From NCBI GenBank assembly GCA_964569815.1, contig CAZMUN010000002.1:2701-66700 (forward strand): DNA of 64,000 bases, read 5' to 3'. The translations under genes were made by a program, and so were the position numbers. The notes under the pieces are model-generated. The model was not told where the DNA came from, made no database searches, and saw nothing but the letters and a program-made list of their open reading frames with translations. The stretch comes from an uncultured archaeon (GTDB taxonomy: Archaea; Iainarchaeota; Iainarchaeia; Iainarchaeales; GCA-2688035). Shown here one piece after another: positions 371-47,264 of the stretch (the first letter of the stretch is position 1; each line of letters begins with the position of its first letter).

Positions 371-3300
371 CTATCCGACATAGCTTGGCTTGAATTCGGC
401 ATGGTGCTCTTCGAAGCGGTCGTAGGCTTCTTCAAGCTTTGGCGTTATGGTCGGCTTTGCCTTTTTCAGGGCCTTTTCCAGGTGGGTCCTTCCCACAGGC
501 CCTGGCTTCATCTTTCTTTCCTTTAAGGCAATCAACGCTGCAGACCTTATGAGCCCTTCTATGTCTGCGCCGGTAAAGCCTTCGGTCTGTTCAACCAACT
601 CATCCAATGAAACCTCTTTTGCAAGGGCTACATTCCTTGTATGCACCTTGAAAATCGCCATACGGCCTGTTTTGTCAGGGGCTTCAACCTTTACAAGCTT
701 GTCTATTCTGCCAGGCCTTAAAAGCCCTGGGTCCATGAGGTCGGGCCTGTTGGTTGCCGCCATGAAAACAACGTTCCTGTTTTGTTCTATGCCATCAAGC
801 TCTGTCAAAAGCTGGTTTACAACCCGTTCAGTGGCATGGGAATCGGAGCCCGAGCCGCGCCTTGATGCAATGCTGTCGATTTCGTCAAAGAACACAATGC
901 ATGGTGCAACCTGCCTTGCTTTCCTAAAAACCTTTCTGATGCCTTTTTCGCTGTTATGCGCAAATAGGCCGCCGAACCCTGCAACAAAGTTTTGGCCGGG
1001 CTCAACCGAGATGTCATAGACTGGACCTTCATAGTGGATTTCTTCAATTTTTTTAACGGGGTCCCAAAAGATGTCGGCTTCAACAAGTTTCCACAACTCA
1101 GGGTACTTTTGCCTCTTCAGATCAACAAGGCAAAGGGCCTCTTGTATCTTGCCCTTCCCAACACCACTGTTTTGGGGGTAACTCACAAAAGCCTCTTCAA
1201 GCAGGGACCTTATCTTTGGGTTAACCGGAACCGCATTGCTTCTTACCCAATGGGCTTTGCTTATTTGCTCATGGAGCATTGAGTTTCTTTTTCTGTCAAT
1301 AAAGCCTGCAGGGGCAAAGCGCTTAAAATTTTCCACTCCGAAAATTTGTACCCTGTAGCTGATTGAACCATTCCATTCCTCTTTAACAGCACAGCTGGCA
1401 ACGATTCCTAATTTTAAGAGCAGGAACAGGAGGTCGCTGGCAAGCTTTTCACTAACAGTTGTTGCCTCAATCATATAGCTTTTACCATTGCTTCTGATAG
1501 TGCCGTCACCGCTAAAATAGCCCCGCAGGAAGGCATGCGCAGATGCATTGGATGAAACAAGCAGGTTGTCCGGGATTCTTTTGGCAAACGCACCGCTTAC
1601 TAAGCCAAATGCCTTGAAAACTTGGGTTAAAGTTGTACTGTTTATCACTATTCCTGCGCCCTTAACTGCCGAGTATTTTAAACCAAGCCTGTCAAGCGTT
1701 TCGCAGGCCCTTTGCAGAATCTCTTGGTTTACGATTGAAAGCCTTGGAACGTTGCTGTTGAAGTCACCTTCTGCAACCCACAGCCCAAACAGTTCAAACA
1801 GCTCTTCGGACAAAGGAAGCAAAGCAGGCAGGCGGTTTCTGCAGCCCTTTCCGGAGATTTTAGCTTCGCTTAAATTGAGTTCTTTTTTTGATTTCTGCAA
1901 AAGGCTGGTGAAGTTCTTCAGGCTTAAAGGCAGGTTTTTGTATGCTATATCATAAAGGTATTTTTGCTTCAGCCCGGTTAAAGACTTTGCCTCTTTGTAG
2001 CCAAGCTCGGCAATCAGTTCACTAACTTGCGGCGAGGAAATAAAAAAACCGTTTTTTTGCCGGAACAATTCGAATAGGTTCAGGCAGCCATCCCCAATGG
2101 TTATATTGGGGATTTTGGAGGGAACCGCCAAAACGCTCTTGCCTTCAACAAGCCGCGTAGGGGAAACAGGCTCTATCTCGTTTTCAACGAGCGAGAACAG
2201 GGAATGTTTATCTGTAACCCTGATCTTCCTGCCTGTCTTTGTGGTTATCTGCAGCATCTTTCCCCTAAGAGGATGCTTTATAAAATCAGCTATCTTTGAA
2301 AAGAACGCTTTTCCGTCGTTATCAAAGGTTACCACTTGGAGGCTTTTCCTCTCTTCAACAATTTTTCCAATCTTCTCCCTGAAGATTCTTTTTCCGTCAA
2401 AAACTAGAAGTTCCTCGTCGTAAGGCAGGCTCTCTCCAACCCACATGCTTAAAAGTTCCGGCCCTTTGACGGAAATGAAGTTTGCCTCTGATTCCGAAGC
2501 AACGGCTTTTGCAAGAAGGGTTTTCCCTGTTCCAGGCGGCCCAAAAAGCATTATTCCTGCCGGAGGCTTTATTCCCATTTTTTTAAAGCTTTCAGGCTTC
2601 TTTAAAGGCCATTCAACAGCCTGCTTAAGCTCTTCTTTTGCCTCTTCCAGGTCGCCAACATCGGACCACTTAACATTGGGTATTTCAATGGTCACTTCCC
2701 TTAAGGCAGAGGGCTGCACATCCTTTAAGCCGTTTTGGAAGTCGCGCTTGTTCACTTCCAAGGATTCAAGGATTTCCTGGGGAATCTTTTCCTCCTCCAA
2801 ATCGATTTTTGGAATGTATCTGCGAAGGGCTTTCATTGCAGCCTCTTTTCCCAAGGCAGCTAAATCCGCGCCAACAAAGCCGTGTGTGATGGATGCAAAA
2901 AACTCTAGTTCAACGTCTTTTGCCAAAGGCATTCCCCTTGTGTGAATCAACAGAATTTCTTTCCTTGACTTTTTGTCAGGCACAGGGAACTCTATTTCGC
3001 GGTCAAACCTGCCAGGCCTGCGCAAAGCTTCATCAAGGCTGTTCACGCGGTTGGTTGCTGCAATCACTATTACGTTTCCCCGTGCTTCCAAGCCGTCCAT
3101 AAGGGAAAGTATTTGGGCTACTACACGCCTTTCAACTTCGCCTACAACCTCTTCTCGCTTTGGGGCAATGGCGTCAATTTCGTCAATGAAAATAATGCTT
3201 GGAGCGTTTTCTTCCGCTTCCTTGAAAATCTGCCTTATTCTTTCCTCGGCTTCGCCGACAAACTTTGACATTATTTCAGGGGCATTTATTGAAATAAAGT

Positions 3301-4036
3301 GGGCCTGTGTTTCGCTTGCAACGGCTTTTGCAAGAAGGGTTTTCCCTGTTCCAGGCGGCCCAAACAAAAGAACGCCTTTTGGCGGAACAATTCCAAGCTT
3401 TCTGAACAGCTCAGGGTGCTTCATTGGCAGTTCAACCATTTCGCGGACTTTTCTTATGGGCTCATCCAAGCCGCCTATGTCATCATAGGAAACGGTTGGA
3501 ATGGCTTCAGGCTCTGTTTTGACAGGCTTTTCTTTGAGGGTTATTTGGGTAAAGTCAGTCACCTTTATTATGCCTCTTGGATTGGTGTCTACCACGCGGT
3601 AAACAAAACCTGAGCCAAAAACGCTTATCCAGACACTGTCCCCCAAAGTTAGGGGCCTGCCGAGAAAATTCTTTTTAAGTATGCGGTCATAGCCTGATGC
3701 AATTATCCTTATTTCCTGTGTAGGCGCCAAAACGATTTTTTTTGCTTCTTTTGGGGAACCTTTTTTTACCGTAACCTTTTCTCCAAGGCCGGCTCCTGTG
3801 TTGTGCCTTATGAAGCTGTCCATTCTTATCAAAAGCTTGCCTTCGTCTTCACTGCGGGCAGGCCATACGGTTGCAGCTGTTTTCTTTTGGCCTTCGATTT
3901 CAATTATGTCTCCGCTTGTTATGCCAAGAGTGCGCTTGGTTTCCCTGTCCAGGGTAACGATGTTTCGGCCAACATGTGTAGGGTCAGGGTCTGCTACCTT
4001 TAAGTCTACGCTTTTTTCCTGCATTTTTGCATACAA
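371..4036 (-). CDS. cdc48: Cdc48/VCP-like AAA+ ATPase (N-domain plus D1 and D2), interrupted by an intein in D2
   Basis: Two Walker A sites [16 protein letters not shown]1 has [11 protein letters not shown]2 has WVGE|intein|[29 protein letters not shown]. Extein total is about 728 aa, typical for Cdc48. Confidence 0.9.
953..2431 (-). mobile_element. Intein (about 493 aa) with LAGLIDADG homing-endonuclease domain inside cdc48 D2
   Basis: Begins with Ser right after WVGE and ends ...[23 protein letters not shown], followed by Ser of SEKGIRK. Block B is TDKH. Two LAGLIDADG motifs are [12 protein letters not shown] and [12 protein letters not shown]. Splicing out restores the canonical WVGESEKGIR. 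Confidence 0.85.
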
Positions 4037-4881: not shown

Positions 4882-5403
4882 CTAGCTTTTCCCGCCCTCT
4901 TTGATTAATTCAACTATGCTTTTGGTCCTGCTTTCTTGCTTAAAAACAGGCTCAACTGAAAAAAAGTTCTGAAGGTTTTTTACTGCTGCATGGTATCCTG
5001 GTATTGACATATACCTGGACTGGAATTCCTTGTGGCAGGATTCAACGTCCTTGTGGATATGCCTTACCATCACGTTCCAGTTTCCGCCGGCCATTACAGA
5101 GCTTATCCAGTAAACATGGGGGTCTTTTTCCGCTACACCAAGAATTTTTTCAAAAATTTTTTGGTTGCCCATGTCAATCTGGTAAAGGGTTGTAACTTCC
5201 AAATCATACCCCAGTTTGCGAAAATCTATTTTTGGGCCAAAGCCCTTCAAAACAGCTTCTTTTTCAAGAAAGGCAAGGCTGCTTTTGATTGTAGCCTTAT
5301 GGTATCCAGTGGCCTTTTGAATCTGGCGTATGTTTGGCTGAACACTGCCTTTTTTGAGAAGGGCCTCAAGCAGGTTTACCCTAATTTCATCGTTTACCTT
5401 CAT
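4882..5403 (-). CDS. Winged-helix transcriptional regulator (Lrp/AsnC-like HTH with a C-terminal domain)
   Basis: HTH is MKVNDEIRVNLLEALLKKGSVQPNIRQIQKATGYHKATIKSSLAFLEKEAV. Start chosen at the internal ATG at 5403. The longer track ORF (to 5649) would run through an AT-rich promoter-like region and overlap the topA stop. Confidence 0.5.
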   Translation of the reverse strand: MKVNDEIRVNLLEALLKKGSVQPNIRQIQKATGYHKATIKSSLAFLEKEAVLKGFGPKIDFRKLGYDLEVTTLYQIDMGNQKIFEKILGVAEKDPHVYWISSVMAGGNWNVMVRHIHKDVESCHKEFQSRYMSIPGYHAAVKNLQNFFSVEPVFKQESRTKSIVELIKEGGKS

Positions 5404-5575
5404 CTGATTAGGCAAAAATACCACAAATATAGATAATGGAACATTTTTAAAAACAAACGTGTTTAAAATGGAACACAAAAAACTCAAGAGTTGATATAAA
5501 GATGTTAAGCGCATATATTTACGCAGTAAAAAGGAGGGATTTACTAGAATAGGTTGCATAGAATTTACACAATGA

Positions 5576-5647
5576 GTTGAGAGAAGGGGAATAGGCTCAC
5601 CAGGCTCAAACTGGCTCTCGAAAAAAAGAGTTTTCCCTTCTCTCAAC
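5576..5647 (-). terminator. Hairpin (13-bp stem GTTGAGAGAAGGG/CCCTTCTCTCAAC) overlapping the topA stop codon, with T7 run in the loop
   Basis: Inverted repeat read from sequence. Functional role not established. Confidence 0.25.
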
Positions 5648-7745
5648 AACCTACTTCTTTTTTTCCGTTCTGCTCTTTAGAGGCGTTTTTTGCAAAATTT
5701 TTCCTCGATTTCTTGTTTTTGCCCCAGTTTTCCTTGGATTTGCAGTTTGGGTCAATGCACATCTTGTAGCGGTATCGCCTTGCATTGACCTTTATCATAA
5801 GGTTGTTGCATTCAGGGCATCTTTCTGGCTCCAAAGAAGAAACAGAGCCCTTTTGCGGCAAAGGATAGGTTACAGTGCATTTTGGGTAAGCGGTGCAGCC
5901 CAGAAACCTTTTTCCTGAACGGCCGCGCCTTATGATTAGCTCTCCTTTGCAGTCTTTTCCAGGGCAGGGCCCGATTATGGAGTCGGCTCTTGCAGCATTC
6001 CTTATCTTGGAGCCTATTTCGTTCCTGTTTTTCAAAAGCGGGTCCAAGGCCTTGGAAAGGAAGGCCCGGCTTTCTTTGACAACGTCCTGCTTCGCTTTTT
6101 TGCCGTTGGCAACAAGGTCCATTTCCTTTTCAAGGTTTGCAGTCATCTCAGGCTTCACCACTGCACTTTCATGCTTTTGAAGGCTGTCTACGACAGCAAA
6201 AGCTATTTTTGTCGGAATCAGGGCCTTCTGGCCCTCAACGTAGTGCCGGCTGTAAAGCTTTTGAATGGTTTCAGCACGGGTTGACTTTGTTCCAAGGTTG
6301 AGCTCAGACATGGCTTTGATCAAAGAGCCCTGGCTGTATCTTGCAGGAGGCTGGGTTTCCTTTTCAAGCAAGTCAAGCTTTTCAAGGCTGGCCTTGTCGC
6401 CTTTTTTTAGCGCAGGAAGAATGGTTTCCGTTGCCTTGCTGTAAGGGTAAAAAAGCTTCCAGCCTTTTTCAAGGTAACGCTGGCCTTTTGCAACAAAAGG
6501 CTCTTTGTTCAAATCAATGCCAACTGAAAGGTTTTCGGTTACTGCGTCGTCTGCCAGCGTCGCCATAAAGCGCCTGCAGACCAACTCATAGATTTTCCAG
6601 CTCAGGGCATCAAGCTTTCCTTTTGGCACGGCCGAAACAGGGTGAATCGGCGGATGGTCTTTTGCTTCCTTTCCACGGCTGGCTTCAAGTTTTCCTTTTT
6701 CTAAAAGCCTGGAAACAAGCCCCTGAAAATCGGAAACCTTGGCCAGCTCATTCAGCGTTGCCTTTAAGTCAAGGGTCTTTGGGTAAACCGAGTTGTCTGT
6801 TCGCGGGTAAGAAATGTAACCTGCCTGATACAAGGATTCCGCGACTTGCATTGCACGGCCTGCAGAAAGGCCCAAAGAGGTTGAAGCCCTAAGAAAGGAA
6901 GTGGTGTTAAAAGGCAGTGGCTTGGAAAGAGTCTTTTTTGATTTTTTCACAGAGGAAACTGTTCCAACAGGCGGCTCTCCGCATTTGCTGGCTTGGCCTG
7001 CTTCAGACTTGTTCCAAAACTTGCCTTTTTTGTGAACGGCTTCAAATTTTTTTTGGTCTTTTTCAAACAGTGCTGAAAGAACCCAGTATTTTTTTGCCTT
7101 AAAAGCCATTCTTTCCTTTTCCCTGTCCACTATTAAAGCAAGCGTTGGCCCCTGAACGCGGCCTGTTGAAAGAAACTCTTTTCCCAAACGGCCAGAAATC
7201 AGTGAAAGAAACCTTGTTAGTACAGCGCCCCAAACAAGGTCTATTTCACGCCTTGAATTCGCGCTTTCAGCAAGGTCAAAGTCAAGCTTTCCAAGGCTCG
7301 AAAACGCGTCTTCGATGTCTTTTTTGGTTATGGCGGAAAAGATGGCTCTTTTCACTTCAAGCCCTGGGCTGGCTTCTTTAAGGATGTTTAAAGCTTCCAA
7401 GCCGATTGCTTCGCCTTCACGGTCTGCGTCTGTTGCAATCACAACCTCGTCTACCTCTGAAGCAATTTTTTTCAAAAGCCCTGAAATGCTGCGCTCTGTT
7501 TTCTGGTAGCTTATTTCTGCATCGGCAAGCTTTTTCAAATCGGTTCCAAGCCACTGCTGGTAGCGGATAGGAAAGTCCACGTCCACTATATGACCCGACA
7601 ATGGAACAACTGTGTAGAGCTTGCCATCCCTTTCAAAATCAAACCTGACGGCATTTTCCGACCGGGTTCCAGGAACCTGCTTTCCGGCAAGAAAGGCCGC
7701 AATTCTCCTGCCAGCAATGGCCTTCTCCGCAATTATTAGAATCAT
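5643..7745 (-). CDS. topA: DNA topoisomerase I (type IA) with Toprim domain and C-terminal zinc ribbons
   Basis: N-terminal Toprim MILIIAEKAIAGRRIA...TDADREGE. C-terminal CPGKDCKGEL...GCTAYPKCTV...CPECNNLMIKV zinc fingers. No helicase domain, so not reverse gyrase. Confidence 0.85.
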   Translation of the reverse strand: MILIIAEKAIAGRRIAAFLAGKQVPGTRSENAVRFDFERDGKLYTVVPLSGHIVDVDFPIRYQQWLGTDLKKLADAEISYQKTERSISGLLKKIASEVDEVVIATDADREGEAIGLEALNILKEASPGLEVKRAIFSAITKKDIEDAFSSLGKLDFDLAESANSRREIDLVWGAVLTRFLSLISGRLGKEFLSTGRVQGPTLALIVDREKERMAFKAKKYWVLSALFEKDQKKFEAVHKKGKFWNKSEAGQASKCGEPPVGTVSSVKKSKKTLSKPLPFNTTSFLRASTSLGLSAGRAMQVAESLYQAGYISYPRTDNSVYPKTLDLKATLNELAKVSDFQGLVSRLLEKGKLEASRGKEAKDHPPIHPVSAVPKGKLDALSWKIYELVCRRFMATLADDAVTENLSVGIDLNKEPFVAKGQRYLEKGWKLFYPYSKATETILPALKKGDKASLEKLDLLEKETQPPARYSQGSLIKAMSELNLGTKSTRAETIQKLYSRHYVEGQKALIPTKIAFAVVDSLQKHESAVVKPEMTANLEKEMDLVANGKKAKQDVVKESRAFLSKALDPLLKNRNEIGSKIRNAARADSIIGPCPGKDCKGELIIRRGRSGKRFLGCTAYPKCTVTYPLPQKGSVSSLEPERCPECNNLMIKVNARRYRYKMCIDPNCKSKENWGKNKKSRKNFAKNASKEQNGKKEVGC

Positions 7746-14022: not shown

Positions 14023-14111
14023 TAAAAAAAAACCCGTTTTTTTTGAAATAATTAATGGTAATAAGTTTAAAACCGTTTCCTGGGAAAAATATCATCAGGG
14101 GATTTAAAAAA

Positions 14112-15071
14112 ATGGCCGGAGAACTGCCCTGGGTGGAAAAATACAGGCCTGGAACACTTTCACAAGTGGTAGGCCAAAAAGACGCAGTCAGCAGGCTGCA
14201 AAGCTATGTAAAAAACAAAAACGTCCCAAACATGCTTTTTTCAGGGCCAGCAGGAATAGGAAAAACAAGCGCTGCAGTGGCCCTTTCCAAAGACCTCTAC
14301 GGCTCGGAATTCGGCCGAAATTTTTTGGAACTGAATGCATCAGATGCCCGCGGAATAGACGTGATAAGGGGCCAAATAAAGGACTTTGCCCGCACTTTAG
14401 CTTTTTCAGCAGACTTCAAGATAATCTTTTTGGACGAATCAGACGCCCTTACAAGCGACGCCCAGCATGCCCTGAGAAGAACCATGGAAAAATACACCAA
14501 AACATGCCGATTCATACTGAGCTGCAATTATTCCAGCAGAATAATAGAGCCATTGCAAAGCCGTTGCGTGGTGTTCAGGTTCAGGCCCCTGACAGCCAAA
14601 GAAATGGAAACAAGGATAGACGAAATAACAGAAAAAGAGTCCCTGGCATTGGACAAAAAAGCGCTTGAAGCAATAACCTATGTAAGCATGGGCGACATGA
14701 GAAAGGCCGTTAACATACTGCAAGCCGCCTCCGCCCTGGGGAAAAAAATCGATGAAGAAAACATATTCAACGTGTCAAGCAGGGCAAGGCCGCAGGAAAT
14801 AAAAGAAATAATTCAAACCGCACTCAAAGGAAAATTTCTGGAAGCAAGAAACCTCTTGGACACGCTGATGTACCAGCATGGAATGTCAGGCGAAGACGTA
14901 ATAAGCCAGGTTTACCGCGAAGTCATGAACGCAGATGAAAAAGAAATCCCAAGCAAAACCAAGATAGGCCTTGTGGACGTAATAGGAGAATACGATTTCC
15001 GCTTGGTGGAAGGAGCCAATGAACGCGTTCAATTGGAAGCAATGCTCGCCCAGTTCGCAAAATTCAAGTAA
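14112..15071 (+). CDS. rfcS: Replication factor C small subunit (clamp loader), intein-free
   Basis: LPWVEKYRP...GPAGIGKTSAAVALSKDL, Walker B FLDESDAL, SRC-like SCNYSSRIIEPLQSRC. Start at the ATG at 14112 (MAGELPW). Confidence 0.9.
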   Translation: MAGELPWVEKYRPGTLSQVVGQKDAVSRLQSYVKNKNVPNMLFSGPAGIGKTSAAVALSKDLYGSEFGRNFLELNASDARGIDVIRGQIKDFARTLAFSADFKIIFLDESDALTSDAQHALRRTMEKYTKTCRFILSCNYSSRIIEPLQSRCVVFRFRPLTAKEMETRIDEITEKESLALDKKALEAITYVSMGDMRKAVNILQAASALGKKIDEENIFNVSSRARPQEIKEIIQTALKGKFLEARNLLDTLMYQHGMSGEDVISQVYREVMNADEKEIPSKTKIGLVDVIGEYDFRLVEGANERVQLEAMLAQFAKFK

Positions 15072-18602: not shown

Positions 18603-20336
18603 ATGGCGGACGAAGACTACTTGGCAGACCTTATAAAAAAGGTAAAACAGGCAAAAAAAGAGCAGGCTAAAGCAAAGGCAACTGCACCAAAAAAAGCCGA
18701 AATGCCTGCAGGAATTCCAAAAGAAGTCCAGGAAATAGACCTCAAAAAAATGCCTGAAAAGCAGTCAGAGCCACAGGCAGCCCCCGAAAAGCCAAAACAG
18801 GAACAGGCTGCAAAGGCAATGCCTGAGCCAGAAGAGGAAGAAGAAGCGCCAAGAAAAAGCACTGTTGAAAAAGAGCTGGAAGTGGCAAGCAAAAAAATAG
18901 AAATTGAAAGCTACGGCAACGTAAGAATAATGCAGGTTCCAGGAAAACCGCTTCCCTTTTACATGGTGCCTGTTGCAAGGCCGACAAAGCAGGAAAAAGC
19001 CGTAATAAACACCATAAAAGAGGCAGCCACAAGGCTTATCGCAATCTCGCCATACAGAATTCGCGACCCAACGCAAAGAAGAACGGTTTACAAACAACGC
19101 ATAATGGAAATCCTGAAAAACAGCCCAGAGCTGCACATTCCTGAGAGAAGGTTTGGGTTTTACGCCGAGTCCGTGATAAGGGAAATGGTGGGCTATGGCA
19201 TAATAGACCCGCTTGTAATGGACGACACGCTTGAAGAAATCATGGTGATTGGCGCAAAAAAGCCAGTTTACCTCTTTCACAGAAAATACGAAATGATGTC
19301 AAGCAACATTGAATTCTATTCAGACAAGGAAATAATCGACCTCATAAACAGGATTGCCCGCGTGATAGGAAGGCGCGTAGACATAAGCTCGCCGTTGCTT
19401 GATGCAAGGCTTCCGGACGGAAGCCGTGTCAATGCAACGATTCCGCCTGCCTCTGTAGAGGGGGCAACCCTTACCATAAGAAAATTCAGAAAAGACCCTT
19501 ACACAATAGTAGACCTTTTGAACAACGAAACACTTACAAGCGAAGTTGCCGCATTTTTGTGGCTGTGCGTTGACGGCCTGGGAGCAAAGCCAGCAAACAT
19601 ACTAATTGCAGGAGGAACAGGATCAGGAAAAACCACGACCTTAAACTGCCTGGCTTCCTTTATTCCAGATACTGAACGGGTTATATCAATCGAAGACACG
19701 GCTGAACTGTCACTGCCATTAAAGCACTGGGTGAGAATGGAGGCAAGGCCTCCAGGCCTAGAGGGAAAAGGCGAACTCACATTAGATGTTTTAACCAAAA
19801 ACAGCTTGAGGATGCGCCCAGACAGGATACTTGTGGGAGAGGTAAGGCACGACGAGGCATTCACGCTTTTCACTGCATTGAACACCGGCCACGACGGCTG
19901 TTTAGGGACGATTCACGCAAACTCGCCGCAGGAAACAATTGTTCGTGTTACAAGCCCACCAATGAACGTTCCGGAAGTAATGCTCTCAGGCCTGGACCTG
20001 ATTCTGATAGAGCACAAGCTCCATGACAGGAGAAAGGGAACGATAAGGCGCTTGACAGAGATAGCGGAAGTAAGCGGAGTTCTCTTGAGAAAAGCACAAA
20101 CCCAAACCATTTTTGCAAGGGACCCTGCAAAAGACACGATTGAGAGAACAAACGTTCCCATTAAATACTTTAAAATACTACAAGATTTCACAGGAATGAA
20201 GCAAAAAGACATAGAGGAAAACTGGAAAAAAAGGCAAGTTTTCCTCGAAAAAATGAGGCAAAAGGGCATAAGAAGCCTGGAAGAAGTGAAAAAAGAAACC
20301 CAAAAATTTTACATGGAAGAGAACCAAAATGCCTGA
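18603..20336 (+). CDS. Type IV pilus/archaellum assembly ATPase (FlaI/ArlI, VirB11/GspE superfamily) with a low-complexity K/E/P-rich N-terminal extension
   Basis: Walker A ILIAGGTGSGKTTTLN. Asp box and RIS...GEVR motifs. About 100 aa of lysine-, glutamate-, alanine- and proline-rich sequence at the N-terminus. Confidence 0.85.
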   Translation: MADEDYLADLIKKVKQAKKEQAKAKATAPKKAEMPAGIPKEVQEIDLKKMPEKQSEPQAAPEKPKQEQAAKAMPEPEEEEEAPRKSTVEKELEVASKKIEIESYGNVRIMQVPGKPLPFYMVPVARPTKQEKAVINTIKEAATRLIAISPYRIRDPTQRRTVYKQRIMEILKNSPELHIPERRFGFYAESVIREMVGYGIIDPLVMDDTLEEIMVIGAKKPVYLFHRKYEMMSSNIEFYSDKEIIDLINRIARVIGRRVDISSPLLDARLPDGSRVNATIPPASVEGATLTIRKFRKDPYTIVDLLNNETLTSEVAAFLWLCVDGLGAKPANILIAGGTGSGKTTTLNCLASFIPDTERVISIEDTAELSLPLKHWVRMEARPPGLEGKGELTLDVLTKNSLRMRPDRILVGEVRHDEAFTLFTALNTGHDGCLGTIHANSPQETIVRVTSPPMNVPEVMLSGLDLILIEHKLHDRRKGTIRRLTEIAEVSGVLLRKAQTQTIFARDPAKDTIERTNVPIKYFKILQDFTGMKQKDIEENWKKRQVFLEKMRQKGIRSLEEVKKETQKFYMEENQNA

Positions 20337-21450
20337 AAAAAAGCCAAGCAAGAAAGAAGAGCCCACAGAAATAGACATGGAAAAGGTCGAAAGAATAGTA
20401 AAAAGAATGCGGGACAAGTACCGCGACGAAGGAATGGAATTCGAGGAAGTGGGCGGAACCCTGAAAGAGCTTCGCGGCCTGATAGCAGAGGGAATGGCAG
20501 CCAAAATAGAAATACAAACCATTGACGAGCTAAGAGAAGTGAAAAGCAAGCTGGTAAAATTCCTGGTCAGCGTATACTTAAAGCTTGGCGCAGTCCTAAA
20601 GCCAATAGCAAAAGCAATGGGAAAATTCCCAGAAATGGAAATGCTCTCATTCTACTTGTACAGCGCAAACATGCACTACAGCAGCAAGCAATACATTGCC
20701 TTGACAGTTGCAAGCGCAACCCTTGCATTCCTTGTAGCAATGCTTACATCTGCCGCTGTCTTCACATACCTCAACATAGAGATGGCAACACGAGTAATAG
20801 CAATACTCGTAATATCGGCCCTGACCTTTGTAATAACCTCAGTTGCAATACTAATGGTTCCAAAGCAGAAAGCCATAGCAAGGGGAAACGCAGTAAGCAT
20901 AGAGCTGCCGTTTGCATTAAGGCACATGGCCACAGAGCTAAGGGCCGGAATAGGGCTTTACAGGACCATTCAAGCAGTGGCATCAGCAGACTACCACGAG
21001 CTAAGCGAAGAGTTTGCCCGCGTCATAACAGAGGTAGAGGAAGGCACAGACACACAGGACGCGTTAAGGCACCTTGCCTTGAGAACACAAAGCCGCGCAC
21101 TGAGAACAGCAATAATCCAAATAATCCGCGCACTAAAAACAGGCGGCAACTTAAGCGAAAGCATGAACGACATAGCAGAAGACGTTTCGTTTGAAATGAG
21201 GATGGCTGTCCGCGAATTCGGGCAAAGAATGAACTTCTTTGGAGTGGTCTTTATCTTTGGAGCAATAGTCATGCCCGTAATGATAACCATTTTAGGGGCA
21301 ATAAGAAACAGCCCCATAAAGGCAAGTATGTCAAGCTTTGAAATGCTTCCATTGACACTGCCGGTAATGGCAGCAATATACCTGGCAATAATGCCGTTCG
21401 TTCTGATATTGTTTTTGTTCTACATTAAAACAGCTCAACCAAGGGTGTAA
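20329..21450 (+). CDS. T2SSF-domain membrane platform protein (FlaJ/TadC-like), part 1
   Basis: ELPFALRHMATELRAGIGLYRTIQAVA is a T2SSF signature. Polytopic. Confidence 0.75.
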   Translation: MPEKKPSKKEEPTEIDMEKVERIVKRMRDKYRDEGMEFEEVGGTLKELRGLIAEGMAAKIEIQTIDELREVKSKLVKFLVSVYLKLGAVLKPIAKAMGKFPEMEMLSFYLYSANMHYSSKQYIALTVASATLAFLVAMLTSAAVFTYLNIEMATRVIAILVISALTFVITSVAILMVPKQKAIARGNAVSIELPFALRHMATELRAGIGLYRTIQAVASADYHELSEEFARVITEVEEGTDTQDALRHLALRTQSRALRTAIIQIIRALKTGGNLSESMNDIAEDVSFEMRMAVREFGQRMNFFGVVFIFGAIVMPVMITILGAIRNSPIKASMSSFEMLPLTLPVMAAIYLAIMPFVLILFLFYIKTAQPRV

Positions 21451-21452
21451 AA

Positions 21453-22397
21453 ATGGCAGAAGAAAAAAAGAAAGGATTGGAATTTTTTGAGAATTACAAA
21501 AAAATGCTGAAAAGCATTAAATTCAAGAGCCCTGCAGAAGCCTGGGTCCTGATATCAACAGTGCTTGCCCTGGCAGGCGCAATCGCAAGCTTTTCAGCCA
21601 TAGCAATTTTGCAGCTTCCTGTTTCACCGCTTGTTTCAACAGTCATATTCCTCGTGATTTTAGATGTTTTGCTTGGATACCCTTACCTTCGCGCGCTAAG
21701 AAGAATAAACGCAATAGAGGAAGCGCTTCCAGATGCCCTGAAACAGCTTGCAGACACCCTGAAGGCAGGCGGAACATATGAATACGCTTTAAGGGAGCTC
21801 TCCACATCAGAATACGGGCCGTTAAGCCACGAAATGGCAGAAGTGCTGAGAAAAATGGAGGAAGGCGAAAACCTGGAAGACAGCCTTAACAGCTTTTCAA
21901 GAAGCGTTGACTCAATCCTGGTAAAAAGAACCATTTCAATAATAAACGACGCAATAAAAGCAGGCGCAGGCTTGGCAGACGTGCTTGAAGAAATATCTGA
22001 TGACGTAAGGGCAATGCACCGCATTGCAAAGGAAAGAATTGCTGGGACGATGCTTCAAGTCATTTTCATTGTAGCAGCAGGCTCAATGGTTGCACCGGTC
22101 ATACTTGGAATGGTCACAACAGTTGTACAGCTTTTAATTGAAACAAGCGCAAGCATAGTAACAGAAAAGGCCCAGATAGTGGAAGCCATTGCAGCAAGAG
22201 ACTTCATCGTAATCCTGATGCAGCTTTACCTAATGCTTGAAGTGATTGCATCAGGTGCCATGATTGCAATGACCCGCGAGGGAAAAATAAGCAAAAGCCT
22301 TATATACATCCCAATGCTTTTATTATTGGCATTTGTTTGCTACTATACGGCAATATTTGTTTCAGGATTAATGATTGGCGGAATCGGAGCAAGATAA
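21453..22397 (+). CDS. T2SSF-domain membrane platform protein (FlaJ/TadB-like), part 2
   Basis: EALPDALKQLADTLKAGGTYEYALRELS is a T2SSF signature. Starts 3 bp after the previous gene, so the platform is split into two genes. Confidence 0.75.
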   Translation: MAEEKKKGLEFFENYKKMLKSIKFKSPAEAWVLISTVLALAGAIASFSAIAILQLPVSPLVSTVIFLVILDVLLGYPYLRALRRINAIEEALPDALKQLADTLKAGGTYEYALRELSTSEYGPLSHEMAEVLRKMEEGENLEDSLNSFSRSVDSILVKRTISIINDAIKAGAGLADVLEEISDDVRAMHRIAKERIAGTMLQVIFIVAAGSMVAPVILGMVTTVVQLLIETSASIVTEKAQIVEAIAARDFIVILMQLYLMLEVIASGAMIAMTREGKISKSLIYIPMLLLLAFVCYYTAIFVSGLMIGGIGAR

Positions 22398-30467: not shown

Positions 30468-30509
30468 ACCCCTTTTTTATTAACCTTATTGAACCAACTT
30501 ATTTTTACC

Positions 30510-32306
30510 ATGGAAACAGATTCAAGGCATAGGATTGCCGTCATAAACTATGACAAGTGCAACCCAAAAAAATGCGGCGGATGGCTCTGTGAAAGCGTCT
30601 GCCCTGTGAACAGGGCAGGAAAGGAATGCGTTTTCCACGAAGCCGAGCAAAAGCCAAACATTTCCGAAGAGCTCTGCATTGGCTGCCTCATCTGCGTCAA
30701 CAAATGCCCTTTTGGGGCAATAAATGTGATAAACCTGTCAATGCAGCTTGATTTGCCTATTCACCAGTATGGAGAAAACCTTTTCCGGGTTCACAAACTG
30801 CCTTTGCCAAAAGAGGGAAGCGTGGTAGGCCTTGTTGGAAGAAACGGCTTGGGAAAAAGCACTGCATTGAACATTTTGTCAGGGAAGCTTGTGCCAAATT
30901 TGGGAAATATGGATGAAAACCCTTCTTGGGAAAAAGTGGCGGAAAAATTTCGCGGCAAGGAAGCCCAAGCGTTTTTTGAGGGCCTGAAAAAGCAGGAAGT
31001 GAAAGTAGCGGTAAAGCCACAGAACATTGATTTGCTTCCAAAAGTGTTTCAAGGAAAAAAGCCAGTTAAGGAGCTTTTGAAAAAGGCAGATGAAACAAAC
31101 GCCTTGAAAGAGGTTGCAAAAAAACTCGGCTTGGAGGAAATTCTTGAAAGGAAGCTTGAAAACCTTTCAGGCGGCGAACTGCAAAAAGTGGCAATTGCAG
31201 CAACGGCAATGAAAAAAGCAGACTTCTTCTTTTTTGACGAGCCAACAAGCTACTTGGACATAAAGCAAAGGGTGAAGGTAGCAGGTTTCATACGCGAGCT
31301 GGCAGAAAACGGGGCCAGTGTTATGGCAGTAGAACACGACCTAATCATTTTGGATTACTTAAGCGACTTCGTTCACTTGATGTACGGAAAGCCGGCAGTT
31401 TTTGGGATTGTAAGCCAGGTCAAAACAACAAAATCAGGGGTCAACGACTACATCGAGGGCTTTTCAAAAGAAGAAAACTACCGGTTTCGCGAATACACAA
31501 TAGAGTTCCCAGTAAAGGACAGCACAAAGAAAAAAACTTCCCAAAAGATAGTGAAATGGCCTGCTTTTTCAAAGACATTGGGAAGCTTCAAGCTTGAAGC
31601 AAAAGAAGGCTCCCTAAACAGGGATGAAGTGGTCGGCGTTTTAGGAGAAAACGCAACAGGAAAAACCACTTTTGCAAAAGTGATTGCCGGCCTGCTTGAA
31701 CCAGACTCAGGAAAGCTCGACATAAAGCTTCGTGTTTCCTACAAGCCGCAGCAGCTTGAATCAGACTCAAAGGAAACAGTGCAGGAATTTTTGCAGGCAA
31801 AAACCAAAGAATTTGGAACAGAAAACTACAAAGCAGAAATCCTGAGGCCGCTGGAAATCGAAGCATTCTTGGAAAAAAAGCTCAATACCTTGTCCGGAGG
31901 AGAACTGCAGCGTGTAGCGATTGCAGGGTGTTTGGGGCAGGAAGCCGACATTGTGCTAATGGACGAGCCCTCAGCCCATTTGGATGTAGAGCAAAGGCTC
32001 AAGGCAACGAAGGCAATAAGGGCAGCAGTGAACAGGAGAAACAGTTCTGCAATAATAATCGACCACGACCTGGTGTTTTTGGATTATTTGGCCGACAGGA
32101 TAATGTTTTTTGATGGAACTCCTTCAAAAAAAGGGGTTGCCAACAGCCCTGTGGGAATGGAGCAAGGCATGAACTCGCTTTTGAAAAAGCTTGAGATTAC
32201 GTTGAGGCGGGAAAAGAACGGACGCCCAAGAGTAAATAAAAAGGGCAGTGTTCTGGACAGAAAGCAGAAAAGCTCTGGAAACTATTACTACAGCCAGGTG
32301 TTTTAA
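30510..32306 (+). CDS. abcE1: ABCE1/RLI ribosome-recycling ATPase (2x[4Fe-4S] N-terminal domain plus two ABC domains)
   Basis: N-terminus CNPKKCGGWLCESVCPV...CIGCLICVNKCPFGAI. Two Walker A (GRNGLGKST, GENATGKTT) and two LSGGELQ signature motifs. ATG at 30510 is preferred over the upstream TTG. Confidence 0.9.
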   Translation: METDSRHRIAVINYDKCNPKKCGGWLCESVCPVNRAGKECVFHEAEQKPNISEELCIGCLICVNKCPFGAINVINLSMQLDLPIHQYGENLFRVHKLPLPKEGSVVGLVGRNGLGKSTALNILSGKLVPNLGNMDENPSWEKVAEKFRGKEAQAFFEGLKKQEVKVAVKPQNIDLLPKVFQGKKPVKELLKKADETNALKEVAKKLGLEEILERKLENLSGGELQKVAIAATAMKKADFFFFDEPTSYLDIKQRVKVAGFIRELAENGASVMAVEHDLIILDYLSDFVHLMYGKPAVFGIVSQVKTTKSGVNDYIEGFSKEENYRFREYTIEFPVKDSTKKKTSQKIVKWPAFSKTLGSFKLEAKEGSLNRDEVVGVLGENATGKTTFAKVIAGLLEPDSGKLDIKLRVSYKPQQLESDSKETVQEFLQAKTKEFGTENYKAEILRPLEIEAFLEKKLNTLSGGELQRVAIAGCLGQEADIVLMDEPSAHLDVEQRLKATKAIRAAVNRRNSSAIIIDHDLVFLDYLADRIMFFDGTPSKKGVANSPVGMEQGMNSLLKKLEITLRREKNGRPRVNKKGSVLDRKQKSSGNYYYSQVF

Positions 32307-33353
32307 TTGAGGGTTTTGAAAATCGACAGGAAGGAAAACTTTCTTCATTTGGAGCCGGAAATAGAGGACGACTTGTGGCATTTGGAGCGCGTTATAGAAG
32401 AGCACGATTTGGTAACAGGCTTGACTGACAGAAAAATAAAAGGCAAGGAGCCAGGAGAAAAAGCCCAAAGGATAAAGCTGGTTGTAACGCTTGACGTGAA
32501 CGGTGTTGAATTCCACAGGTTTATTGGAGAACTTAGGGTTTCGGGAAAAATCGTTGAAGGCAAGCCTGCTGAATTTCTTGACTTTGGTTCCCAGCAGTCT
32601 CTTGAAATAAGGCTTGGAAAGAATGTAAAGATAAAAAAGCAGTCGCTTAAAAATTTTCAAGTTGAAAGAATCAGGAAAGCGGCAGAGGCAACAAAGAAGG
32701 GAAATGTTTTGCTTCTTGTCCTGGACGACGAACAGGCAGGATTTGCCTGGCTCAAGGAATTTGAATTGAAGGAACTGGCTTCAATCAGAAGCAACAGGTC
32801 AGGAAAACAGTTCAAAGGAGAAGAGGTTGAAGGCCGCTATTACAGGGAACTCTTGAACAAGGTAAAAGAACTTCGGCCAGAAAAGCTGGTTGTGGCAGGA
32901 CCAGGCTTTGCAAAGGAAGGGTTTGAAAAATTTTTGAAAGAAAAAGGAAAGCCTGGAGACACAGAGATATTTTTTGCTTCAACAAACAGCGTTGGAAAAA
33001 CCGGTTTTCAGGAGCTTCTGAAAGGAGATTCCCTGAACAAAATGGTGCAAGAAATGCAGCTGGTGAAGGAAACAAGGCTTGTTGAAAGGATTCTAGAAGA
33101 GATTGGAAAAAATTCAGGATTGGCAGAATACGGCTTAAAAGAGGTTGAAAAAGCCGTTGAAACCGGGGCAGTTGATGAACTGCTGGTGGCGGACAAATTC
33201 TTGCTGGAAAACAGGCAAAAAGCCGAGGAAATAATGAAAAAAACCGAAAAAATGAACGGGGCCGTGCACTTAATTAACGCAGAGCATGAGGCCGGACGCC
33301 ATTTAATGAATTGGGGCGGGCTTGCTGCCCTGCTTAGGTTCAGAATCAAATAA
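32307..33353 (+). CDS. pelA: Pelota/Dom34 homolog (mRNA surveillance and ribosome rescue), directly downstream of abcE1
   Basis: Pelota-like N-terminal LKIDRKENFLHLEPEIEDDLWHLERVIEEHD. eRF1-like central and C-terminal domains. TTG start. Confidence 0.8.
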   Translation: MRVLKIDRKENFLHLEPEIEDDLWHLERVIEEHDLVTGLTDRKIKGKEPGEKAQRIKLVVTLDVNGVEFHRFIGELRVSGKIVEGKPAEFLDFGSQQSLEIRLGKNVKIKKQSLKNFQVERIRKAAEATKKGNVLLLVLDDEQAGFAWLKEFELKELASIRSNRSGKQFKGEEVEGRYYRELLNKVKELRPEKLVVAGPGFAKEGFEKFLKEKGKPGDTEIFFASTNSVGKTGFQELLKGDSLNKMVQEMQLVKETRLVERILEEIGKNSGLAEYGLKEVEKAVETGAVDELLVADKFLLENRQKAEEIMKKTEKMNGAVHLINAEHEAGRHLMNWGGLAALLRFRIK

Positions 33354-45197: not shown

Positions 45198-47264
45198 TTG
45201 GACATGATTGAAAAAGTAAGGCTTCAGAACTGGAAAACCCACGCCGACAGCTCTTTCCAGTTTGATAAAGGCACAAATGTTTTGATAGGGCAAATGGGTT
45301 CAGGGAAAAGCAGTGTAATGGACGCTGTCTGCTTTGCCCTTTTTGGAACCTTTCCAAGCCTGCAGAGCAGAAAGGTTTCCTTGGAAGAAACCCTTACAAA
45401 CAAGCCAAACAAGGCAGACCAGGCCTTCATTGAGCTCGAGTTTTCATACAAGGGCAAAAAATACCGCGTGGAAAGAACTGTGAAAAGAAAGGGAAACAGC
45501 GAAGCCAAAATATACTGCGAAGGAAAATTTTTGGCAGGGCCAAAGCCCCGGGACGTAAACCAGGAAGTAGAAAAAGCCATTGAAATAAACTACAATCTTT
45601 TCAGCCGCGCAGTCTACTCTGAACAAAACGAAATAGACTACTTTTTGCGGCTAAGCCCAAAAGACCGAAAAACCAAATTCGACGAGCTTCTTGAATTGCA
45701 AAAATACGAAACCGTTCGCGGCAATGCAGTAACGGCCTTGAACAGGTTAAAGGCAAAAGCCAAAGACAAAAGGAAATGGGTTGAAGAGCAAAAAAGCCAG
45801 GCCAGGCCCGAAGAAGAAAAAGGGCTTAAGGAAAGAATCTTGGAAAAAGAAAAGGAAAACAAGGAGCTTTTGGAAACAATAGAGAAAAAAACAGCAGGCC
45901 TGGAAAAGCTTGAAAAATCGGTTAAGGGAATGGAAAAAACCGAAACCGAGTTCAGAAGGCTGCAAAACGCCACAGGAGAAAAAAAAGCAATCAAAAAACA
46001 GCTTGAGAAAGACATTGACGAGATGAAAAAAGAGGCGCAGAAAAGCCCTAAAGAAATAGAAGCCGTGTTTGAAGCCCTTGAAAAAGAAGAAAAAGAAAAA
46101 GAAAAACAAGCCAAGGAAACAGAGCAAAAGCTGGAGAAAGCAAGAGAGCAAAAAAGCTCGGCTGAAAAGCAGGCTGCATTAAACCAAAACAAGGCAGAAG
46201 AGCTCAGCAAACACCTTCAAGAGCTTCAAGGCCTTGGGGCAGAATGCCCGGTATGCAAGCAGAAGCTTGAAGAAAAAACCAGGGAAGCGCTCCTGGAAGA
46301 AGAAAAAAAAGAGCTAAAAAAAGCCGCACTTGAAATGGAAAAAGCCCTGAAGTCAGAAGCAGAAGCCAAAGCAAGGGTAAAGGACTGCGAAAAGGAAGCA
46401 AAAAAAGTTTCAGAGGAAAAAGAAAAGCTTACAGAAAAAAGAAATGCCTTGAAACAGGAAAAAGACGCTATTAAAAAGCTGGCTGAAAAAACCAGCTGCC
46501 TTGAAAAAAACTCAAAAGAGCTTGTTGAACAAGAAGAAAAACTCAAAAAGATGGAATTTGATGAAAAAAAGCTTTTGGACCAGAGAAAAAAACTGGTTGA
46601 AGAAAACGCGGCAATAAATGCAGCAAAAAATGCTGTAAAGGCAAACCAGCAGCTTTCCCAAGAAATGAGAAAAAGCCTTGGAAGAATAGAACAAACAAGA
46701 GCCAGGATAAAAGAACAAGAGAAAAACGTGAAGGCAATTGAAGCCAACTCGGAAAAGATGAACCTTTTTGTAAACAGCCTGCTTGCATCACAGCAGGAGC
46801 TCAGGGCAACGCTTATTGCAACCATAAACCAGGCAATGGACAGCATCTGGAAACGCGTTTACCCTTACAAGGACTACCTTTCGGCAAAAATGGATGTCGA
46901 ACAAGGAAACTACGAATTGCGCGTAAAAGACCTTAACGGAAACTGGGTTCGGGTTGAAGGAATTTTAAGCGGCGGGGAAAGAAGCGCTGCAGCAATCTGC
47001 ATAAGGATTGCTTTTTCGTTTGTTTTGACAAGGAACCTGAGCTGGATTATTTTAGACGAGCCAACACACAACCTTGACAGCGAAGCAGTGCAAACCCTCT
47101 CAGAAATGATGCAGCAGCATTTGCCAAAACTGGTTGAACAGATTTTTGTAATAACACACGACATGGAAATGAAAAAGGCCGCTACAGGCTCACTCTATGT
47201 CCTGGAAAGGGAAAAAAACAGTGACTCGGCAACAAGGCCTGTTTTAAGGCCAATCGGCAACTAG
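45198..47264 (+). CDS. rad50: Rad50/SbcC-family SMC-like ATPase with CxxC zinc hook
   Basis: Walker A GQMGSGKSS. Long coiled coil with central hook CPVCKQKL. Signature LSGGERSAAAI, Walker B ILDEP, D-loop. Confidence 0.8.
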   Translation: MDMIEKVRLQNWKTHADSSFQFDKGTNVLIGQMGSGKSSVMDAVCFALFGTFPSLQSRKVSLEETLTNKPNKADQAFIELEFSYKGKKYRVERTVKRKGNSEAKIYCEGKFLAGPKPRDVNQEVEKAIEINYNLFSRAVYSEQNEIDYFLRLSPKDRKTKFDELLELQKYETVRGNAVTALNRLKAKAKDKRKWVEEQKSQARPEEEKGLKERILEKEKENKELLETIEKKTAGLEKLEKSVKGMEKTETEFRRLQNATGEKKAIKKQLEKDIDEMKKEAQKSPKEIEAVFEALEKEEKEKEKQAKETEQKLEKAREQKSSAEKQAALNQNKAEELSKHLQELQGLGAECPVCKQKLEEKTREALLEEEKKELKKAALEMEKALKSEAEAKARVKDCEKEAKKVSEEKEKLTEKRNALKQEKDAIKKLAEKTSCLEKNSKELVEQEEKLKKMEFDEKKLLDQRKKLVEENAAINAAKNAVKANQQLSQEMRKSLGRIEQTRARIKEQEKNVKAIEANSEKMNLFVNSLLASQQELRATLIATINQAMDSIWKRVYPYKDYLSAKMDVEQGNYELRVKDLNGNWVRVEGILSGGERSAAAICIRIAFSFVLTRNLSWIILDEPTHNLDSEAVQTLSEMMQQHLPKLVEQIFVITHDMEMKKAATGSLYVLEREKNSDSATRPVLRPIGN

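Follow-up and report, generated by a model that had tools for sequence, protein, structure and literature searches.

In a 64,000-nucleotide stretch of DNA from an uncultured archaeon of the phylum Iainarchaeota (GenBank contig CAZMUN010000002.1, positions 2,701 to 66,700; the whole stretch is called the window here), the first large gene encodes a Cdc48/VAT-type double-AAA ATPase whose second ATPase module, D2, is interrupted in frame by 493 amino acids (aa). We are close to certain that this insert is a genuine class 1 intein rather than a stretch of Cdc48 domain, and consider it very probable that the intein is complete and carries a nested homing endonuclease predicted to be active. The element is an ordinary class 1 LAGLIDADG intein, a mobile selfish element of a well-known kind, and it leaves the understanding of inteins unchanged. 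Its interest lies in its location, at the pore loop with which Cdc48/VAT grips its substrate; it is a well-documented intein in a machine of proteostasis rather than of replication or repair. The family as a whole is of mild interest too: one intein lineage occupies homologous D1, D2, and other AAA sites across archaea and bacteria, providing material for studies of ectopic (paralogous) homing. With its two serine nucleophiles (Ser1 and Ser+1) and an endonuclease that appears intact, the intein might also serve as a protein-engineering reagent.

An intein at the D2 pore loop of Cdc48

The insert, SLPYDEE...GGLFAHN, covers residues 536-1028 of a minus-strand open reading frame (ORF) and lies between Walker A and Walker B of D2, at the Glu/Ser of M-W-V-G-E/S-E-K (a slash marks each insertion point). 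Pfam recognizes Intein_splicing (4.6e-20, aa 20-493) and LAGLIDADG_3 (7.9e-22) in it, and NCBIfam recognizes intein_Nterm (4.1e-12) along with intein_Cterm (4.8e-5), each scoring higher than its curated cut-off (for TIGR01443, 23.5 bits against 15.6), as well as the intein portions of models for intein-containing RpoA'', Tes, IF2, RFC, and V-ATPase. A sequence search of the PDB returned PI-PkoII as the best match (8.6e-25), then TFIIB mini-inteins and VMA inteins. An AlphaFold2 model built on 24 family sequences, which together with alignments was used to draw the domain borders listed below, has a mean predicted local distance difference test score (pLDDT) of 92 with no segment below 50, and a predicted template modeling score (pTM) of 0.90. 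Its best Foldseek match is again PI-PkoII (2cw7, E 2.2e-28, TMq 0.73), and further intein-endonuclease matches include the TliVMA intein (7qss, 3.2e-23), PI-PfuI (1dq3, 9.5e-18), and PI-SceI. The terminal segments of the model match the TFIIB, CDC21, and RecA mini-inteins and so have the HINT fold. The endonuclease core alone matches the free-standing LAGLIDADG enzymes I-Tsp061I and I-DmoI (TMt 0.6-0.66), and residues 209-372 follow the alpha-beta-beta-alpha-beta-beta-alpha order of a pseudo-dimeric LAGLIDADG fold with a beta-sheet DNA saddle. Ser1, T-x-x-H, the block F Asp, His-Asn, Ser+1, the HINT fold, and the precise in-frame insertion together identify a class 1 intein. Wherever the 24 family sequences cover them, blocks A, B, C, E, F, and G are conserved, the start motif S-L-P-(Y or F)-D-E-E is kept across AAA-hosted members of the family alignment, and we found no evidence that contradicts the intein assignment. 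A preliminary description of this DNA had reported a LAGLIDADG intein of about 493 residues at 953-2431 in Cdc48 D2, with canonical Ser1 ... His-Asn / Ser+1 junctions; the exact coordinates, profile matches, and fold agree with that report, as do the re-translated junction codons.

The host gene is equally clear. The ORF (371..4036, 1221 aa) matches the TIGR01243 CDC48 profile at 1044.7 bits (cut-off, 802.65), and Pfam finds CDC48_N, CDC48_2, two AAA domains, and AAA_lid_3, which corresponds to the N domain (double-psi barrel plus beta-clam) and two AAA modules of the Cdc48/VAT/p97 group. Translation probably starts at the ATG at 4022..4024 (ORF codon 5) rather than at the TTG at 4036; the orthologue at a second intein-bearing locus, L001, begins at the aligned position. 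Counted from this ATG, the precursor has 1217 aa and the intein occupies residues 532-1024. The features of the gene are as follows.

371..4036, minus strand: Cdc48/VAT precursor gene, ORF from TTG at 4036 to the stop at 371..373; CDC48_N, CDC48_2, D1 AAA, and intein-interrupted D2 AAA
2432..4024, minus strand: N-extein, 531 aa counted from the ATG; holds the N domain, D1, and the N-terminal part of D2, including Walker A (GPPGTGKT) and pore loop 1 (S-M-W-V-G-E)
2432..2434, minus strand: Glu-1, last N-extein residue (re-translated codon)
953..2431, minus strand: intein, 493 aa, class 1, with nested LAGLIDADG homing endonuclease; Ser1 ... His492-Asn493 / Ser+1
2087..2431, minus strand: HINT N-terminal part, intein aa 1-115; TIGR01445 on aa 2-79, matches to TFIIB and CDC21 mini-inteins
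2429..2431, minus strand: Ser1, block A (re-translated codon)
2204..2215, minus strand: T73-D-K-H76, block B (T-x-x-H); T and H invariant in the family alignment
1817..2086, minus strand: accessory helical domain 1, intein aa 116-205; modelled helices span 119-181
1307..1816, minus strand: LAGLIDADG endonuclease core, intein aa 206-375; Pfam LAGLIDADG_3 and structure matches
1766..1792, minus strand: LAGLIDADG motif 1, LFGLWVAEG; E221 at 1769..1771
1580..1582, minus strand: Lys284, block D; invariant in the family alignments
1502..1531, minus strand: LAGLIDADG motif 2, containing LRGYFSGDG; D309 at 1505..1507
1082..1306, minus strand: accessory domain 2, intein aa 376-450; modelled as helices and strands at 380-451; aligns with the C-terminal region of PI-PkoII
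953..1081, minus strand: HINT C-terminal part, intein aa 451-493; TIGR01443 on aa 470-493, block G end GGLFAHN
1013..1015, minus strand: Asp473, block F VYDISV (re-translated codon)
953..958, minus strand: His492-Asn493, block G (re-translated codons)
950..952, minus strand: Ser+1, first C-extein residue (re-translated codon)
374..952, minus strand: C-extein, 193 aa; Walker B VFFDEID, remainder of D2, and lid
992..1282, 1548..1955, and 2097..2423, plus strand: ORFs taken as shadow ORFs of the long minus-strand gene

Excision of the 493 residues leaves a 724-aa product that matches VAT (5g4f) end to end at 3.5e-246 and aligns with Thermoplasma acidophilum VAT without a gap across the junction, as expected from the earlier claim that removal of the intein restores the Cdc48 sequence. 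On the C-extein side the joint reads .../SEKGIRKVF, and the C-extein begins 20 residues before Walker B. The insertion point is E544/S545 of VAT (5g4f chain numbering), two residues past the pore-loop pair W541-V542, which probably corresponds to E554/S555 of human p97, where the sequence is TMWFGESE. Pore loop 1 of human p97 D2 is M550-W551-F552 (PMC10216129). An unspliced subunit has its D2 ATPase module split beside the translocating loop; the protein must splice to be useful. At the DNA level, the intein-less site around the joint is reconstructed as ...ATGTGGGTTGGAGAG/AGCGAAAAAGGC..., or at greater length as CCGGAACTTTTAAGCATGTGGGTTGGAGAG/AGCGAAAAAGGCATCAGAAAGGTTTTTAGG. The D1 module of the same protein is probably not a viable target, because the Ala at +1 of the equivalent position could not support splicing.

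The anatomy, precise insertion, fold, conservation of all catalytic residues, purifying selection, and patchy distribution are documented here; splicing and DNA cleavage are predicted to run along conventional lines. Translation would yield the precursor of about 1217 aa, in which an N-O acyl shift at Glu-1/Ser1 would be helped by Thr73 and His76 of block B. Attack by Ser+1 (transesterification) would produce a branched ester, and cyclization of Asn493, helped by His492 and by Asp473 of block F, would release the intein. A final O-N shift would leave a native Glu-Ser peptide bond and a 724-aa Cdc48 in which M-W-V-G-E-S-E-K, the pore loop, and an unbroken D2 ATPase site are restored. Once free, the intein (493 aa, 56 kDa) is predicted to cleave Cdc48 alleles that lack it, around ...ATGTGGGTTGGAGAG/AGCGAAAAAGGC..., and recombinational repair would copy the intein into the cut allele, completing homing. 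As both nucleophiles are serine, the cysteine-based redox control known for some inteins does not apply. One could also imagine conditional Ser1/Ser+1 splicing as a posttranslational gate on unfoldase and proteasome-feeding activity in reduced DPANN cells, since an unspliced subunit would be without a contiguous D2 ATPase site and pore loop; this is pure conjecture, and we rate it a long shot.

Patchy distribution and the state of the endonuclease

A scan with the N-extein across one genome per GTDB species yielded the 80 closest Cdc48 loci, the nearest of them mostly labelled Candidatus Iainarchaeum (phylum Iainarchaeota, DPANN); the few of these with other taxon labels are probably mis-binned. 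In 79 of the 80, the intein is absent and D2 is uninterrupted (WVGESEK). The sole carrier, L009, is the same contig as L001, from a Lac Pavin Iainarchaeum metagenome-assembled genome (MAG). Two of the intein-free loci, L006 and L007 (87-89% N-extein identity), were deposited under the names 'Chloroflexota bacterium' and 'Thaumarchaeota archaeon' although their Cdc48 is Iainarchaeum-like, which looks like binning contamination in public MAGs.

The unbroken orthologues bear directly on whether the insert could instead be a lineage-specific Cdc48 domain kept in the mature protein. Splicing is predicted from sequence, which is what can be said for such a domain. Alignment to intein-less orthologues, the check proposed in the preliminary description, gives no support to a domain common to all homologues; the insert has all of the intein blocks along with the HINT and LAGLIDADG folds; and the same element recurs in D1, other AAA proteins, and ATPases of unrelated kinds. 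Retention of a segment that parts Walker A from Walker B beside the pore loop would, in addition, disrupt D2. The retained-domain explanation is effectively refuted, and we give it next to no chance.

Presence of the intein does not follow host phylogeny. The intein-free loci L003-L008 share 83-89% N-extein and 63-78% C-extein identity with the window, and for L003-L007 the N-extein figure is 85-89%, against 81% and 76% for the intein-bearing loci L001 and L002. In a neighbor-joining tree of spliced exteins, the window falls among L003-L007, and L001 and L002 lie further out. The empty sites of L004, L005, and L007 are identical to that of the window at the protein level, those of L003, L006, and L008 differ by one to three conservative residues, and the DNA of the L003-L008 empty sites agrees with the reconstructed site at 44-50 of 60 positions. 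Such sporadic presence is the expected signature of a mobile LAGLIDADG element with gain and precise loss.

The same intein stands at the same site within continuous ORFs in independent MAGs, in L001 (1218 aa) and L002 (1291 aa) and also in the public proteins P0005, P0034, and P0054. The gene order topA - small ORF - NFACT-R - Cdc48 is common to the window, L001, and L002, so the three loci are orthologous. These observations also bear on the idea that this copy of Cdc48 is a pseudogene, dead or decaying, or an assembly chimera, in which the intein would be irrelevant to function. Cdc48 paralogues can coexist in an Iainarchaeum genome (L011 and L075 are from a single MAG), so that a disrupted copy might be tolerated, and L002 has a W-to-G change in the adjoining pore loop; within the window, no second Cdc48 gene was found. 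Against decay, the ORF is unbroken over 3.6 kb, the Walker A, Walker B, and pore-loop (MWVGE) motifs are canonical, the synteny is kept, and identity to orthologues is 81-89% for the N-extein and 68-78% for the C-extein. Compared with L001, the proportion of nonsynonymous differences (pN) in the exteins is 0.14-0.16, against more than 0.73 for synonymous differences (pS); the exteins are well conserved and, by this measure, under purifying selection. A chimera is excluded by the same architecture in independent assemblies, and we regard a pseudogene or chimera as very improbable.

Some Cdc48 variants among these loci deserve separate mention. The L002 pore loop (5995..6012) reads S-M-G-V-G-E, with GGG for TGG and loss of the aromatic residue, and the start M-L-V-G-K/S of P0009 suggests a second non-aromatic variant; the L002 loop could reflect a sequencing error or relaxed constraint on intein-bearing copies. 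Two other insertions were considered as extra inteins and rejected for want of intein junctions and blocks, one of about 83 aa in the D2 lid of L015 (L015 1115..3625; Cdc48 aa 703-787) and one of about 50 aa in D1 of L002 (aa ~403-454, directly upstream of ITHGFVGAD). Both are ordinary, lineage-specific, helix-rich insertions.

Turning to the endonuclease, neither LAGLIDADG motif has lost the acidic residue that precedes its last Gly (E221 and D309), as had been reported earlier. In the 20 family members whose sequence reaches block C (four partial ones do not), position 221 is always E or D, and G216, A220, G222, K284, P287, G304, S307, G308, D309, and G310 are invariant across the 24 aligned members. 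The block D lysine, K284, is unchanged in both family alignments and is the presumed equivalent of Lys301 of PI-SceI. Every intein subdomain has pN far below pS in the comparison with L001, at 0.19 against 0.70 in the endonuclease core; synonymous divergence (dS) is saturated (pS 0.69-0.86), so only the contrast of pN with pS was used, as a qualitative measure. The accessory domains evolve faster (pN 0.31 for domain 1 and 0.23 for domain 2), as expected of DNA-recognition modules tracking target drift. Domain 1 is the fastest-evolving part of the intein, with 51% and 32% identity to L001 and L002, compared with 77% and 67% for the N-terminal HINT part, and is presumed to be a DNA-recognition accessory domain, a concept taken from work on VMA inteins (PMC8966425). 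In VMA inteins, loss of the acidic residues of blocks C and E goes with loss of cleavage, and restoring them restores it (Beyer et al., PMC8966425). Because the motifs, their conservation in the family, the VMA precedent, the selection pattern, and the patchy distribution all point the same way, we predict, with somewhat better than even confidence, that the homing endonuclease is active; the earlier suggestion that it may be so is reasonable.

Several observations weigh against this prediction. The selection evidence for endonuclease activity is indirect, with dN/dS only qualitative at saturated dS, and part of the purifying selection on the endonuclease fold could stem from the needs of folding and splicing rather than of DNA cutting. 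The guanine-plus-cytosine (GC) content of the intein (0.451; 0.493 at third codon positions, GC3) is indistinguishable from that of the host gene (exteins 0.465 and 0.501; window 0.446), giving no signal of recent acquisition, and intein divergence roughly parallels extein divergence; there is thus no sign of a very recent invasion. Nor is ongoing homing supported by any intein-less allele from the same population.

An alternative that fits these points is a genuine splicing intein whose endonuclease is dead, a fixed vertical passenger kept because precise deletion is rare and Cdc48 needs it spliced out. Its composition is ameliorated to that of the host, and the identity of the intein to L001 (69%) and L002 (53%) runs roughly in step with that of the C-extein (74% and 57%), compatible with vertical descent. 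A scan of IMG/VR viral contigs with the intein-only alignment also found no close relative that might serve as a vector, only distant LAGLIDADG inteins of at most 35% identity. A dead endonuclease is harder to reconcile with the retention of both catalytic acidic residues and the block D lysine in the window and in every family member covering them, or with the low pN of the endonuclease core; inteins that decay usually drop motif residues or are reduced to mini-inteins (PMC8966425). The absence of the intein from the closest exteins (L003-L007) and its presence in the remoter L001 and L002 moreover require repeated precise loss or gain, as expected of a still-cycling element. We therefore consider a dead endonuclease possible though rather unlikely.

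A family of inteins at AAA pore loops

Relatives of the intein were sought in 5.8 billion proteins with a word-indexed search, which returned 52, and in 1.84 billion cluster representatives with an exhaustive phmmer search, which returned 72 clusters at E <= 1e-30 and 3973 at E <= 1e-3. About 44 public proteins hold the family at the homologous AAA position, after the G-E (or G-Q) and before the S-E of pore loop 1. Sorted roughly by C-junction motif, about 24 have a D2-type junction (WVGE/SEKG, SERG, or SEKA), about 12 a D1-type junction (KYYGQ/SEEN or KFYGE/SEEN), and about 8 lie in other AAA contexts. Two partial AAA proteins from Planctomycetia/bacteria, P0027 and P0030, have the same N-junction without the C-junction and stand outside this count. 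P0001, P0002, P0003, and P0005 are the same allele as the window intein, with an identical site and 53-69% identity. Sources of the family include Iainarchaeota (Diapherotrites), Micrarchaeota, Woesearchaeota, Nanoarchaeota, Hadarchaeales, and Methanosarcinales, and also Planctomycetia.

In the intein tree, the D1-site inteins form one clade and the DPANN D2-site inteins another, and Hadarchaeales D2 inteins cluster with bacterial AAA inteins. These site-specific clades imply that the 'allelic rule' holds within sites and that there was at least one jump between paralogous sites. Because of them, the G-E/S-E position after pore loop 1 is fairly well supported as a recurrent intein niche of classical AAA ATPases (D2, D1, and other archaeal and bacterial contexts) reached by paralogous spread. 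Some Cdc48 proteins carry two inteins, among them P0053 (1707 aa) and P0055 (1912 aa), with which the Cdc48-like P0075 is grouped. In P0053, the first intein ends ...LMVLHN/SKFVGEAE, five residues upstream of the D1 pore-loop site, and the second is at the D2 pore-loop site; P0055 combines a pore-loop-site intein with a Walker B intein (...DLFVHN/CILFFDEI). Counting these arrangements, inteins have entered the AAA module at three or more separate points.

At a greater distance, relatives of the intein are hosted by VirB11/T2SS-E ATPases and ParA-like proteins. The next-closest (P0059-P0071, P0077-P0082, and P0099-P0119) are multi-intein secretion ATPases of VirB11/T2SS-E type, up to about 2100 aa long, which hold two or three inteins at recurring sites: GGTASGK/S (P-loop), SIED/S...HN/TREL or TPEL, and LFQGMA/S or LFQGMS/S...HN/SGHP.

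Most hosts of the family are annotated merely as 'AAA family ATPase', several with truncated gene calls; one same-allele protein has the JGI label 'ATP-dependent 26S proteasome regulatory subunit/intein/homing endonuclease'. In P0001, P0002, P0003, P0008, P0009, and P0013, the public gene calls begin three to seven codons before the intein, and truncated starts read MWVGE/S, MGVGE/S, MGD/S, MLVGK/S, and MSKYYGQ/S. In the underlying DNA of L001 (4400..8056 of JAPLVT010000024.1) and L002 (4210..8085 of JANLGZ010000070.1), the ORFs are continuous, and about 530 N-terminal residues, comprising the N domain, D1, and half of D2, are unannotated. The pattern recurs in six proteins or more, which suggests that annotation goes astray systematically at inteins, and wrong public gene calls lacking about 530 N-terminal Cdc48 residues can distort gene-content and phylogenomic analyses of DPANN archaea.

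Neighbouring genes and known systems

Elsewhere in the window, the replication factor C (RFC) small subunit gene (14055..15071, 338 aa, Rep_fac_C and AAA domains) and topA (5643..7745, 700 aa, Toprim, Topoisom_bac, and Zn ribbon domains) are of normal length and intein-free, as the preliminary description had it. The family profile found no second intein in the six-frame translation of the window better than E = 0.74, a search that a very divergent mini-intein might escape. A 255-aa ORF between NFACT-R and topA (4882..5649, minus strand) has no Pfam match; unannotated ORFs of 183 aa (L001) and 179 aa (L002) occupy the same place and are likened to it by position alone. GC dips to 0.34-0.36 (window 0.45) in its 5' part and upstream of it (5250..5700). 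Other genes include two tandem T2SSF-family genes for a pilus or archaellum membrane platform (20329..22397, plus strand), ABCE1/RLI followed by an eRF1-domain protein resembling aRF1 or Pelota (30489..33353, plus strand), a Rad50/SbcC-like SMC ATPase (45198..47264, plus strand), and a protein with a C-terminal H-type lectin domain, unusual in archaea (60618..61613, minus strand).

Among characterized elements, PI-PkoII, intein 2 of the Thermococcus kodakarensis DNA polymerase (2cw7/2cw8), is the closest counterpart. Both consist of a HINT domain split by a double-motif LAGLIDADG endonuclease with accessory domains, both end in ...AHN, and their sizes are similar (537 aa against 493 aa). Identity is only 23%, however, the accessory domain at 116-205 is poorly matched, and the host of PI-PkoII is a family B DNA polymerase rather than an AAA unfoldase. 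Endonuclease activity of PI-PkoII has been demonstrated experimentally, whereas that of the Cdc48 intein is a prediction from its sequence. The overall intein-endonuclease architecture is also that of the TliVMA/PhoVMA pair (7qss/7qst), PI-PfuI (1dq3), and PI-SceI (1vde). In contrast to the Ser1 and Ser+1 of the Cdc48 intein, these have Cys1; identity is 13-21%, and their hosts are the V/A-ATPase A subunit or ribonucleotide reductase. TliVMA and PhoVMA are the source of the rule that block C and E acidic residues accompany activity when present and inactivity when lost (PMC8966425).

The AAA ATPase inteins of public databases (P0001-P0036, P0053-P0067, and others) belong to the same family as the window intein and are uncharacterized. 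Same-allele sequences have been in NCBI and JGI for some time, so the host site is unusual but already sequenced. We found no paper on this archaeal Cdc48 allele in the literature on Cdc48/VCP/VAT, AAA ATPase, and DPANN inteins, and a 2018 census of eukaryotic inteins does not mention Cdc48 as a host. The earlier statement that Cdc48 is not a classic intein host stands in part: the main text of the 2016 prokaryotic census mentions neither Cdc48 nor COG0464 or COG1222 (PMC4760082), but a CDC48 ATPase intein was named in Anaeramoeba in 2023, in a eukaryotic orthologous group (KOG) already known to hold inteins (PMC10710043), and dozens of public proteins carry the present family. According to that report, such singleton inteins of Anaeramoeba resemble orthologous-site inteins of bacteria or archaea, or other Anaeramoeba inteins, and most singletons and pseudo-singletons are described as being without obvious endonucleases, with the CDC48 one not specified (PMC10710043).

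Novikova et al. (2016, PMC4760082) describe a concentration of inteins in the conserved functional motifs of ATPase domains, those of AAA+ proteins among them. The Cdc48 intein fits this clustering as seen there for the inteins of MCM, RFC-S, and DnaB. In those cases the elements occupy P-loop, Walker B, or sensor regions of replication proteins, whereas here the motif is the pore loop of a proteostasis unfoldase.

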